Of a stretch of DNA of 64,000 bases, positions 592 through 58,900 are shown piece after piece. The position numbers and the translations under genes were made by a program. The stretch's first letter is position 1. The number at the start of each line of letters is the position of its first letter. The DNA lies in IMG/VR virus record IMGVR_UViG_3300032303_003166, positions 29,584 to 93,583 of that record. One strand, 5' to 3'. The DNA is from a virus (lineage: Duplodnaviria; Caudoviricetes). The notes beneath the pieces are model-generated. The model was not told where the DNA came from and made no database searches. It worked only from the letters and a program-made list of their open reading frames with translations.

Positions 592-2907
592 ATGACGATT
601 TATGCTAAGCAATTTATTCAAGAAGCATTTGGAAAAGGTACAAACCTTCATAGTACTCATGCTGAAGATTTGGTTCATTTGGGTGGAAAGTTTGGTGTAA
701 ATTGGCTATTAGAAACGCTAAAAAACATATTCTCTGATTTGCAATCAGAGAGTCAATCTAGTATTACAAAATCTGTAAAAATTGATGGTGCACCAGCTGC
801 CATGTGTTTTATGAGTTTTCCAGGTCTTGAGGGGCCTGGAGTTGCTACCAAAGGCCTATTTGCTAAAAATCCCAAGTATGCTAGAACTCCTGAAGATTGT
901 CAAGTTCTTTATGGCCACGCTCCAGATCTTGTTAGAAAAATGCAAAAACTTTTGCTATCAATTCCTAATATGGGTATACCTGAGGGTGAAGTTTGGCAGG
1001 GTGATTTTCTTTATGATAGTGAATCATTAAGCACTGAGATGATTGGCGGAGAAGAGTGCTTGACTTTTCAGCCTAACACAATTATATACGCTGTTCCATT
1101 AGACTCTGCACTAGCAGATGAAATAGCTAATTCTGATATTGGAATTGCATTTCATACGCGATACACTGGAACTATTGATAACGCTAAAGCAAATTATAAC
1201 GCTAAAGTATCTGAATTAAACCCTACGCCTGGCGTGTTTATGACAGATCCTTACATACCATCTCTTTCTGGAAAAGTTAAATTCTCTTTTGAAGAATCCA
1301 ACTATATCAATGAGCAATTATCAGTTTGTGAAGAGATTATTAATTCATTAGATATTGAAGATATTGTACAAAATGAAAACTTTACTATGTTATTTAGCAC
1401 TTATCAGAATACTCTTGTACGTCAAGGAACTCAAGTTGTTGATCCAAAAGAATTCTATAATGGATTTAATTCTTGGCTAAATAATAGAGTACAAAAAGAA
1501 ATAGATTCTAAAAAAACAGAAAAAGGAAAAATAGACACTCAACAAAAATTTGATTCCTATCTGTCTTTAGCTCAAGATACAAGAATAGTTATGATTGTAG
1601 AGCTAATAAATATTCTTACCAATCTTAAATCTAAGTTTATAGAAAAGTTAAACTATTTAGGTCAATTTAAAACGTATTTAAAAACTTTAGACGGAAATAT
1701 CATGACAACCAATCAAGAGGGTTTCATGATCTCTGATCAAGAAGGCAATGCTGTTAAGCTTGTGGATAGAGGAGAATTTAGTAAGATGAATTTTGATCCT
1801 AATATTTTAAAAGGCTGGCAAAAGAATGCAGAAGCTACTATATCAGAATCTGTTAAAGAGTTTTTAGAAGTGTATAGCTTTGATGACTTAAAAAATGTTG
1901 TTAATGATAAAGGTCTTCCAATAAGAACACAAACTTCAAAGTCTTTGACCGTTGAAGTGCCAAAGCCAGAAAGAACCACTATCACAAAAGATCTTGCATC
2001 TGAATTAATTTCAAATGACACTCCTCCAGAATCAGAGATTTCTTTATTAAGAAAAGATAAAGATATTAAGATAGATAAGTTTACAATTGCAACCAAACCG
2101 TTAGGATCTCTAGAAGGAAATAAAGGACATACTTTTGAAGATAATGTTTTAGATGTTTTAAAACTAAAAGAGTTTTCAGAATATTCACAAGAGCCATGGG
2201 CTCAAGAGCTATTACATCTTTTAACAGTTTCTGAGTTAGACTACACTGAAGAAGATGTTGAAAAAGTTGGTGGATTAAATGTAAGAAGACCTATTAACTG
2301 GTTATCAGAAAATCTTGTTCCGCTACCAGAGGGTGCTAAGTTTGGAGACTTTATTGCAATTGGAAGAGCCTTATCTGACATTAACATTTATGGCGATGGT
2401 GGTCCAGAAGATATTCTACCTATCTCTGTAAAATACGGATCTAGTTTGGCATTTTTAAATTGTGGTTTTGGATCAGTTAAAGGAAATTCTGATATATGGA
2501 AAAATAATTTTAGAAAATTTTTCTCAATTATTTCGCCTGATATTAATATAGATAGAGCTCTTCAAGCATTTGATACCAATAACGCGGTGACATTATCAAA
2601 AGAAATAGACAATGAAGTAGTTTTAACCAATCCACCATTTGTTACAGATTTTATAAATCATGCCATTGGTGAAGGATATCTTTACGTACATAATAAGCAT
2701 GTATTTTTTATGAGCACAGAAAAAAGAATGCTCTTGTCTGCAAATCCAAGAATTAAGTATGTAATTTATCCTGTTGCGCCAAGCGATGGATTTGAAATCG
2801 CACTTGAAACTGATGGTATGACAGTTTCAATTAAAGTAAGAGATAAAGTTGGAAGACCTGGTGGTGCTCCAGCAATGATGTTGGAAAAATACAAATTTAA
2901 AGAATAA
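592..2907 (+). CDS. DUF6267-like ligase/nucleotidyltransferase-fold protein fused to a C-terminal PD-(D/E)xK-like domain
   Basis: Ligase-type motifs SVKIDGAP, WQGDFL, QEGFMI, AVKLVDR. C-terminal GHTFE...LSDINI...PISVKY. GAGGT RBS. Confidence 0.55.
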   Translation: MTIYAKQFIQEAFGKGTNLHSTHAEDLVHLGGKFGVNWLLETLKNIFSDLQSESQSSITKSVKIDGAPAAMCFMSFPGLEGPGVATKGLFAKNPKYARTPEDCQVLYGHAPDLVRKMQKLLLSIPNMGIPEGEVWQGDFLYDSESLSTEMIGGEECLTFQPNTIIYAVPLDSALADEIANSDIGIAFHTRYTGTIDNAKANYNAKVSELNPTPGVFMTDPYIPSLSGKVKFSFEESNYINEQLSVCEEIINSLDIEDIVQNENFTMLFSTYQNTLVRQGTQVVDPKEFYNGFNSWLNNRVQKEIDSKKTEKGKIDTQQKFDSYLSLAQDTRIVMIVELINILTNLKSKFIEKLNYLGQFKTYLKTLDGNIMTTNQEGFMISDQEGNAVKLVDRGEFSKMNFDPNILKGWQKNAEATISESVKEFLEVYSFDDLKNVVNDKGLPIRTQTSKSLTVEVPKPERTTITKDLASELISNDTPPESEISLLRKDKDIKIDKFTIATKPLGSLEGNKGHTFEDNVLDVLKLKEFSEYSQEPWAQELLHLLTVSELDYTEEDVEKVGGLNVRRPINWLSENLVPLPEGAKFGDFIAIGRALSDINIYGDGGPEDILPISVKYGSSLAFLNCGFGSVKGNSDIWKNNFRKFFSIISPDINIDRALQAFDTNNAVTLSKEIDNEVVLTNPPFVTDFINHAIGEGYLYVHNKHVFFMSTEKRMLLSANPRIKYVIYPVAPSDGFEIALETDGMTVSIKVRDKVGRPGGAPAMMLEKYKFKE

Positions 2908-9646: not shown

Positions 9647-9732
9647 CTAAGTTGTTGTCTGGTATATACTTATTTTTGATCAAACTGACGAAACCGCGCA
9701 GGATGATGAAATCAAGCTAACGCCGTATGGTA

Positions 9733-10689
9733 CTACAGCCCTAGGCTTTCTGTGAGGTCTGAGAGCTCTTGGTACATAATTGTAGCAACTTTCTTTTCAC
9801 TAAGACCACTAAAACCACTATGTGACTCATAAATGTCTTTAAGAACTGAAGTTAATTCACTCTTGTCTACAACCTCAAGCAACTCACCATTGCAATTGTC
9901 ATTTACCATTTCAATAACTGAATTCCAGGTTTTAACCACTGTTTCTTTAGCAATGTGTCTGGCCTTTGAAGAGGTAACTTTTACTGGATCACCATGATAA
10001 TTCTTAGGATCTAGTCCATCAACTCCAGAGTCTGCAGGATTTCCTTTTCTGCCATAAGTTTCTGCTTTTTGATGAGCTTCTTTTTCGCCTACTCCATGAT
10101 CATATTCAAGATCTATGCCAGGATATTTATCTTCATAGTCTTCAGATGTCATTGGATCATCATAATCTTGTTCATCAGAGACATGATCAGGCATTAGGCC
10201 TGGTTCATCATATGCAGTGTTTGGATCATCATATAGTCCTTCTTGAAGAGCACGTTTAGCCTGCTCAAAAATACTAAGACTGTTTTTTTGTGAAGAAGCT
10301 TTATCCCTATTAAGTTGAGTTCCAGCTACAAGAAGATCTGCTTTTGTTTCTGAGGGTAGATTTTTCATATCACTCATACTTAAATCTGCTTCGTCTGCTG
10401 CCACTTTCATAGGATCTTTTTCCATTTCAAAAAGAGCATCTCTTACGGCTTCTCTAATCAAAGCTTTTAATTCACTTTTGGAAATAGAAATAGAATCATT
10501 GTTTCTTGATTCTAAAATTTTATTGGATGAAACAGGAGCCATGATCTCATCAATTGATGGAGAAGTGTCTTTTTTCATAAGCTTTAGAATTGAAGAGGTA
10601 TCTACTCCACCAGGATCTCTACCAAAGGTAGATTCTAGAAGACCAAATCCACCACCTTGAACATCATTCATTACTTCTGCTATTCCCAT
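9733..10689 (-). CDS. acidic putative head/internal protein
   Basis: 318 aa, acidic, many LLE/IRE/LQE sites. Confidence 0.45.
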   Translation of the reverse strand: MGIAEVMNDVQGGGFGLLESTFGRDPGGVDTSSILKLMKKDTSPSIDEIMAPVSSNKILESRNNDSISISKSELKALIREAVRDALFEMEKDPMKVAADEADLSMSDMKNLPSETKADLLVAGTQLNRDKASSQKNSLSIFEQAKRALQEGLYDDPNTAYDEPGLMPDHVSDEQDYDDPMTSEDYEDKYPGIDLEYDHGVGEKEAHQKAETYGRKGNPADSGVDGLDPKNYHGDPVKVTSSKARHIAKETVVKTWNSVIEMVNDNCNGELLEVVDKSELTSVLKDIYESHSGFSGLSEKKVATIMYQELSDLTESLGL

Positions 10690-10694
10690 GCTAT

Positions 10695-11060
10695 TTAACC
10701 TTTAAAATATTGCTTGCCATTCTCTGCGCGCACATATCCCTGTTGTAGTTGTTCTTGTGGAGCGCTCTGTTCTAGAGGAGCAGGAGCTTCACCTAAGGAG
10801 TTATTATTAACTGTTGCTTCGGCATTTTCTCCAACTTTACCAAGATTATATATGGTATCAGAAAGAGTCATGATTGCTTGTTCAATTTCATTGATATATT
10901 CAATTGCAGGATTGGTCTCTAAAGGAATTCTTCTTTGCATTTCACCATCAAAATTTGAGCTATCAGCAATAACTTGAGCCAGACTTGCTTTTGCTTCACC
11001 GAGCTTCTTTCGTGCATCTTCAACAAGTTTTAATAGTGATGTATAATTTTTTCCAGCCAC
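10695..11060 (-). CDS. hypothetical coiled-coil protein
   Basis: AAGGA RBS, GTG start, late motif AACTAATT upstream. Confidence 0.6.
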   Translation of the reverse strand: MAGKNYTSLLKLVEDARKKLGEAKASLAQVIADSSNFDGEMQRRIPLETNPAIEYINEIEQAIMTLSDTIYNLGKVGENAEATVNNNSLGEAPAPLEQSAPQEQLQQGYVRAENGKQYFKG

Positions 11061-58521: not shown

Positions 58522-58637
58522 TGGACCTGTTGGCTTTGCAGCCAAGTCTTTCATCTTCCTTGACCTTTCATTCTTGTAGGCGTTTTGTCGGTCTTCTCTT
58601 TCGAATGGCGTGATGAAATCGAAACTATTGCAGGCCC
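58522..58637 (-). ncRNA. miniature tmRNA-like RNA (tRNA-like domain only, 116 nt)
   Basis: Acceptor GGGCCTG/CAGGTCC-A with G3.U70. Unpaired D-loop ending TTCGA. P2a TTTCATC/GATGAAA, GAC linker, T-arm TTGGC-TGCAAA-GCCAA. Confidence 0.75.
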
Positions 58638-58641
58638 TGAA

Positions 58642-58713
58642 TTGCAGTCTCAGGATTTGAACCTGAAATGTCACGGCTTATGGGGCCGGATAGTCACCTC
58701 TTCTCTGACTGCT
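58642..58713 (-). tRNA. degenerate tRNA-Met(CAT)-like gene
   Basis: Acceptor GCAGTC/GACTGC with A1.A72 mismatch; T-arm TCAGG-TTCAAAT-CCTGA; anticodon arm CGGC-CCCATAA-GCCG; poor D-arm; no encoded CCA. Confidence 0.7.
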
Positions 58714-58718
58714 ATTTT

Positions 58719-58725
58719 ACTTAGT
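58719..58725 (-). promoter_or_regulatory. late-type promoter ACTAAGT driving the RNA pair
   Basis: Recurrent ACTAAnT motif 5 nt upstream of tRNA position 1. Confidence 0.55.
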
Positions 58726-58900
58726 AATCATCCCAATTGGCGTATTCATCTTCTACGTCGTCTTCGTCTTCTTCATCATCGCTATATTCTTCATCATCAA
58801 TATTGTCTTCATAATCATCTTCATAGTCATCGTCTATGCCATCATCGTCAAAATCATTATCATCAATTAGGTCTTCATCTTCAAGATCTTCATCAATCAT
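58721..58900 (-). CDS. 59-aa hyper-acidic peptide (not in ORF track)
   Basis: GGAGGT RBS; 38 of 59 residues Asp/Glu, no Lys/Arg. Confidence 0.7.
   Translation of the reverse strand: MIDEDLEDEDLIDDNDFDDDGIDDDYEDDYEDNIDDEEYSDDEEDEDDVEDEYANWDDY

Follow-up and report, generated by a model that had tools for sequence, protein, structure and literature searches.

The window, by which we mean the whole 64,000-nucleotide stretch that was analysed, comes from a 93.6-kb record of a large freshwater Caudoviricetes phage that is estimated to be 31% complete and that carries phage genes for thymidylate synthase, dCMP deaminase, a helicase, and a polymerase. The minus strand carries a 116-nt gene (58522-58637, from G1 to the discriminator A73) that we refer to as a mini-tmRNA; the frames that flank it, one acidic with 59 codons and the other with 123, leave a gap of 205 nt. 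The RNA would measure 119 nt if CCA, which is not encoded, is added. The same phage species is present in at least nine other contigs, and the element is identical in 8/9 of these conspecific contigs, which are about 98-100% alike.

The element is a one-piece tRNA-like domain (TLD) of tmRNA, in standard order and without a tag frame. All seven bases of the acceptor 5' strand, with G1, G2, and G3 (58631-58637), pair with 58523-58529, which gives a 7-bp stem with G1-C72, G2-C71, and G3·U70; sequence reading and alignment place the 3' strand, with U70 and A73, at 58522-58529. Then come a stemless, tmRNA-type D loop of 12 nt, recognized by its UUCGA end and by covariation (AGUUUCGA at its end; 58619-58630), the 5' strand of P2 (58612-58618, 7 bp with 58549-58555), the 3' strand of P2 with the GAC linker (58546-58555, from the alignment), and a T arm of 5 bp with a 6-nt loop, UGCAAA, that has G at position 55 (58530-58545, from pairing and D-loop covariation). 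P2 encloses 56 nt, and the PK1-PK4 pseudoknot ring is absent. The first-pass annotation, made from the sequence alone, had listed the acceptor, G3·U70, A73, a stemless D loop ending TTCGA, P2a, GAC, and the T arm on the minus strand, and each is where it had been read.

A strict TLD descriptor matched this element alone in the 93.6-kb contig, and no match arose in 150 Markov-3 copies of that contig, which argues that the element is not a chance occurrence. Its folding is moderately better than that of shuffled sequences (z −2.1), which is modest evidence alone. The Infernal and ARAGORN searches proposed in the first-pass annotation gave no match for the window copy: neither the Rfam tmRNA and mt-tmRNA models nor any other Rfam family hit it, the RF00023 gathering score was not reached, and ARAGORN was negative, although relatives of the element pass RF00023. 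Other identities were rejected. A tRNA-Ala gene, with or without intron, does not fit since there is no D stem, U8, or NGC anticodon arm and ARAGORN is negative; an mt-tmRNA (RF02544) is organellar, and its covariance model gave no match. A 51-codon GTG frame across the element and a 20-codon frame starting at the Ala codon described below are by-products, both unconserved in the family.

A tRNA(CAU)-like gene of 72 nt (58642-58713, minus strand), reported by ARAGORN at a relaxed score only and missed at default, ends 4 nt upstream of the mini-tmRNA and is separate from it. It has an A1·A72 mismatch, C at position 33, and a weak D stem. It is kept, with a compensatory T-stem change, beside a close relative of the element (L170), and it is missing from the equivalent site in a more distant one (L010). 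The two genes are probably part of the same precursor. The sequence TACTAA(G/A)TA, a possible phage promoter, occurs at 58718-58726 (minus strand) and at 12 other sites in the contig, mostly outside long frames; its count is below expectation, and its stop codons are part of the explanation for the pattern. Outside the window, the phage also encodes a Bmp-family ABC substrate-binding lipoprotein (G000 9661-10734; L328:1662-2735) that is ~69% identical to cellular proteins.

A tmRNA-derived family

A homologue at the same place in another contig (L010:1877-1986) was located via a neighbouring 105-residue protein (77% identical) and is, since it was found in this way, free of RNA-pattern bias. 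It is 110 nt long and 61% identical to the window element, keeps G3·U70, A73, and GAC, shows compensatory changes in the acceptor, P2, the T stem, and an inner GACC/GGUC helix, and matches RF00023 with an E value of 7e-7. Pattern scans covering viral, metagenome, and genome collections yielded 37 distinct members, 101-130 nt in length; most lie in phage or metagenome contigs and two in Chloroflexota genomes. The scans themselves imposed G3·U70, GAC, and part of each loop on the members that they found. Relatives score 48-71 bits with RF00023, and 10/12 viral relatives pass its cut-off, which identifies the family as tmRNA-derived and the window copy as divergent within it. An exact-end pattern scan returned chance matches only, a thymidylate-synthase search of viral contigs revealed no relative, and no member of the window element's subfamily turned up among cultured phages by blastn.

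Pairing is conserved throughout the family. Across the 37 members, 258/259 cells are paired in the acceptor stem and 185/185 in the T arm, while P2 shows double changes at 6/7 pairs (alignment A3). Among the six closest members, 99% of cells are paired and 11/20 pairs are double-changed, which exceeds 500/500 shuffles and all slid controls. L170 differs from the window element by only 2 changes in 116 nt, while the flanking alignment is 84% identical. The first-pass annotation had made its claim depend on conservation of G3·U70, P2a, and the T arm and had suggested looking for covariation. All three features are kept in L010 (G3·U70 having been imposed on the scan members), and compensatory changes are present in every helix of L010 and the family. 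Covariation and the family thus support the original view of a phage-encoded, tag-less TLD under selection.

The T loop of the window element, whose oddity had gone unflagged, is atypical, since a 6-nt T loop is found in only 1/167 full tmRNAs. It is compensated by the D loop, which has an A where a G usually contacts T-loop position 55. In the family, G55 pairs with a facing D-loop A in 6/6 members, and U55 with G in the other 31/31 (P = 4e-7). Full tmRNAs show the same split, 118 G·U versus 8 A·G, with one exception. The six A·G members do not form one clade, at least three independent changes being forced (AU p 0.001). The odd T loop is therefore part of a compensatory exchange between the D and T loops, in which A·G replaces G·U; this indicates a selected tRNA-like elbow rather than decay. 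Separately, three permuted two-piece phage tmRNAs (L103, L042, and L081) have an acceptor stem and an A·G elbow nearly the same as those of the window element.

The interior of P2

Members fall into two classes by what P2 encloses. In class 1, P2 is extended up to 11 bp and is followed by a 3-4-nt bulge and then, in tandem, G·A and one of A·G, A·U, or A·A; inward of this bend lie P3 of 3-4 bp, an internal loop (GA/AAA), P4 of 2 bp, and a terminal loop. Judged against the kink-turn sequence rule (PMC4316175), class-1 relatives have a C stem, a 3-4-nt bulge, and G·A, with A at 1n in 16/16 and A at 2b in 16/16, but the window copy has A at 1b and a GNRA hairpin for the bulge. We describe the class-1 interior as a predicted kink-turn-type bend plus two short helices, a putative three-dimensional fold read from sequence and alignment. 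Class 2, read by eye, mostly has a GUA/GAA loop-E-like bulge in place of this bend. Three TLD-only genes of 112-117 nt (L165:2416-2529, L172:139-255, and L082:1684-1795) have interiors that match neither class.

In the window copy, the 5' side of the bend module (58594-58608, from sequence and alignment) comprises a 2-bp C stem, the GNRA-capped hairpin (58596-58605), and then AA. The hairpin replaces the kink-turn bulge in the window copy, L170, and L176, with a double change in L176 that retains the GNRA. A classical k-junction has its extra helix on the non-bulged strand (PMC10573300), a definition that the position of this helix contradicts, and we rejected that label. P3 is formed by GACC (58590-58593) and GGUC (58562-58565), a helix that covaries and has a pair probability of 0.92. 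It is followed by the GA/AAA internal loop, the 2-bp P4, and a 15-nt terminal loop (58566-58589, from the alignment). P4 is CA/UG in the window copy and CG/CG in relatives; it is paired in 19/19 class-1 members, with G-C replaced by A-U in the window lineage.

The first-pass annotation had proposed a single H-type pseudoknot here, from GACC/GGTC and CATTC/GAATG. The first helix stands as P3, whereas the second falls for the family as a whole, and the bend with two helices is the better description of the interior. CAUUC/GAAUG has 5-6 bp in the window copy, L170, and L176 (with one double change), 4-5 bp in L173 and L179, and 1-3 contiguous pairs elsewhere. We rejected it family-wide because it excludes P4 (paired in 19/19) and the GNRA hairpin and is short in other members; judging by its base pairing, it could still form in the subgroup of the window copy, L170, and L176.

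The terminal loop carries a motif resembling a tmRNA resume site, which alignment and a matrix score place at 58577-58585: AAAC, the Ala codon GCC (58579-58581), and a pyrimidine. In the family, this motif reads A(-4) (33/37), A(-3) (35/37), A(-2), N, GC (36/37), a variable third base, and then a pyrimidine. In tmRNA, positions -6 to +1 determine, by way of SmpB, the codon at which reading resumes (PMC3929946), and A(-4) and G(+1) are invariant at the resume site of 166 full tmRNAs. In ~25/37 members, the best match to a matrix of canonical sites falls within 2 nt of the loop site, and seven members score like true resume sites. The family averages 4.1, against 3.0 ± 0.5 for shuffles and 9.2 for canonical sites; at 2.2 bits the window copy scores weakly, and it has A at -5 instead of U/C. 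Positions -5, -1, and +4 of the inner loop are unlike those of canonical resume sites. Since this motif is kept, the family is more than the TLD plus filler, a feature that the first-pass annotation had missed.

Its claim that the 56 nt within P2 hold no ssrA-like tag ending in a stop holds good. From the Ala codon, the frame of the window copy is open to the 3' end of the RNA with no stop, no reading frame or stop is conserved among the 37 members, and nothing downstream of the Ala codon bears a likeness to tags. In 4/37 members, from two lineages, the Ala codon is directly followed by TAA, TGA, or TAG, and the other 33/37 have no such stop.

Known relatives and genomic company

The closest precedent, which the first-pass annotation had overlooked, is the TLD-only tmRNA of mycobacteriophage DS6A (JN698994.1:28478-28557), reported by Mao et al. 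in 2009 and described in passages of PMC4131195 and PMC11915505. According to the same passages, a DS6A-like TLD inhibits tmRNA in E. coli whether chargeable or not, perhaps by titrating SmpB. Like the window element, the DS6A RNA is phage-encoded, in one piece, and in standard order, with G3·U70 and A73, no tag frame, and an A-rich stretch before an Ala codon inside P2. In contrast to the 116 nt of the window element, it measures 80 nt, has no kink-turn/P3/P4 module, and has its Ala codon in a hairpin; a model built from the window subfamily does not find it. Very short TLD-only genes in viral contigs (61-81 nt; L060, L062, L093, L107, L114, L129, and L130) form a class of their own that is nearer to DS6A in size.

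With standard one-piece tmRNA (ssrA, RF00023) the element shares the acceptor, D loop, P2, GAC, T arm, and the G·U / A·G elbow covariation, but it is ~250 nt shorter, lacks the PK1-PK4 ring as well as a tag frame or stop, and has a T loop of 6 nt. Tag-less organellar tmRNAs, which comprise mt-tmRNA (RF02544) and ~65-nt plastid forms in Mallomonadaceae, are thought to help rescue with SmpB (PMC11915505). They too are TLDs without a tag frame, but they are organellar and mostly permuted, and no inner module is described for them. Fermentibacterota tmRNAs encode a natural 2-residue Ala-Ala tag (PMC11915505), which recalls the four family members that read Ala-stop in the loop, but the Fermentibacterota genes are chromosomal house-keeping genes, and the window copy and 32 other members are without such a stop. 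The window element thus resembles a truncated tmRNA but, having no tag frame, lies outside tmRNA proper, as a longer variant of the DS6A kind. Our literature search found no paper on the longer family (101-130 nt), nor the term "mini-tmRNA," and its inner module seems undescribed so far.

Members are often found within tRNA clusters (L159, L162, L176, and L179), and no recurrent neighbour gene was found. In L176, a long near-perfect hairpin (1980-2040, minus strand), possibly another small RNA, has a tRNA-Glu gene on one side and the mini-tmRNA on the other. SmpB or a full tmRNA was found in 0/12 carrier phages; this absence of SmpB is uninformative, since phages with a full tmRNA also have SmpB in 0/15 cases. 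Large carrier phages with complete genomes encode the peptidyl-tRNA hydrolase Pth2 in 3/3 cases, and in one more carrier it lies 3.5 kb from the mini gene; with 5/25 controls positive, this is no more than a hint of an association, two of the Pth2 carriers having related mini genes. Neither Pth2 nor SmpB was found in the window phage's contig. One Lactococcus phage match was rejected as a mini-tmRNA since it is a full tmRNA: phage phiL47 (KF926093.1, L327:1501-1847) has an unannotated full-length tmRNA with a short tag ending, as read by eye, in AVA, and its 5' end is common to 949-group Lactococcus phages.

The two Chloroflexota assemblies (L228:7741-7842 and L269:2561-2679) have a mini copy plus a full tmRNA, although mis-binning is possible. 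The mini copies sit among ordinary cellular genes (uvrA, kinase, and oxidoreductase). The mini form is rare in Anaerolineae, with only the seed, out of 151 genomes, among the matches listed.

Possible functions on and off the ribosome

Our leading reading, which we hold tentatively and at a little under an even chance, is that the mini-tmRNA is a tag-less tmRNA that, charged and bound by SmpB, would enter non-stop ribosomes and take over the nascent chain, adding no degradation tag. It would be cut from its precursor by host RNase P and 3' nucleases, CCA would be added, host AlaRS would charge it, and host SmpB and EF-Tu would bind it. In the non-stop ribosome, the nascent chain would move onto the alanine, and the bend would return the loop towards SmpB, which would limit reading to one or a few codons. 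The chain might then be freed by drop-off and peptidyl-tRNA hydrolase or by a back-up release factor, or alternatively, in 4/37 members, at the stop right after the Ala codon. The net effect would be that ribosomes are freed, the product escapes the host degradation tag, and host tagging falls.

Several observations argue for ribosome entry: the compensatory changes in all helices, the unbiased L010 homologue, the D/T-loop covariation, the match of the loop motif to the invariant resume positions, and the Ala-stop members. Natural Ala-Ala tags and tag-less organellar tmRNAs (PMC11915505) point the same way, as do the chromosomal mini copies beside a full tmRNA and, weakly, the co-occurrence of Pth2. 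Against it, the family exceeds shuffles by little in its resume score and the window copy scores weakly, and 33/37 members are without Ala-stop. A 15-nt loop is presumably too small to pass around the 30S beak, unlike the normal ring (PMC3929946), Pth2 is missing from the window contig and two of its carriers have related mini genes, and since, in the passages cited above, a DS6A-like RNA inhibits whether charged or not (PMC4131195), ribosome entry would be unnecessary for the effect. A bolder form of the same reading, which we consider unlikely, would make the RNA a minimal trans-translation machine, in which a kink-turn replaces the 250-nt ring and presents a single resume codon without threading of the mRNA channel. 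Chains would get one or two alanines and be freed, in some cases with a phage Pth2, and some bacteria would keep a second, non-destructive rescue RNA.

A close rival, only somewhat less likely, is that the RNA is a sponge for SmpB, with or without EF-Tu: it would bind scarce host SmpB off the ribosome and block trans-translation, with the tRNA shape serving processing and stability and the loop a second SmpB contact. This fits what those passages report of the DS6A-like TLD, which inhibits tmRNA chargeable or not (PMC4131195 and PMC11915505), the protection by SmpB of the -5 base of free tmRNA, which bridges the TLD and the resume region (PMC3929946), and the lack of a conserved reading frame. 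That carriers have neither SmpB nor a full tmRNA (0/12) also agrees with it, but the SmpB part is uninformative given the 0/15 among phages with a full tmRNA. It leaves unexplained why the third base of the Ala codon varies, why some members read Ala-stop, and why there are chromosomal copies in Chloroflexota. Ribosome entry and SmpB binding overlap in outcome, which is less host tagging.

The remaining explanations fare worse. Spare phage tRNAs in tRNA clusters counter RNA-cutting defences, and the frequent location of members in such clusters would suit a decoy or spare part that soaks up tRNA/tmRNA nucleases or replaces a cleaved host TLD; we regard this as improbable, since there is no recurrent neighbour gene and the conserved inner bend and loop would be superfluous. 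Lower still we place an alanine carrier for non-ribosomal use, or an inner-module ligand for another protein. The retained alanine identity and elbow, and a loop unlike the canonical one at -5, -1, and +4, would agree with it, but the tmRNA-specific D loop and GAC linker are kept rather than a tRNA D stem, and no aminoacyl-transferase recurs as a neighbour. It is very unlikely that the element is half of a two-piece tmRNA whose coding RNA lies at another phage locus. In aquatic phages, permuted tmRNAs are frequent (PMC9004378), some share the acceptor and A·G elbow of the window element (L103), and the contig is 31% complete, but the parts of the element follow the standard order and its P2 closes on itself, four complete carriers have no second RF00023 match, and the 93.6-kb contig revealed no tag-coding piece, the separate coding piece that the first-pass annotation had named as what would overturn its reading. 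That the element is a decayed ssrA or a functionless integration scar, as its blank Rfam and ARAGORN results might suggest, is largely refuted by the compensatory and tertiary covariation, by its near identity to L170 amid more divergent surroundings, and by its identity in 8/9 conspecific contigs.

Standard annotation misses mini-tmRNA genes, and the family is largely unannotated. Phage control of ribosome rescue has been little studied, the tested tag-less phage tmRNA being an isolated case. The natural variation within the family, with Ala-stop or without and with a kink-turn-type or a loop-E-like bend, is test material for the role that tag-less tmRNAs, including mitochondrial ones, play on the ribosome, and the family bears on how much of a tmRNA suffices to place the resume codon.
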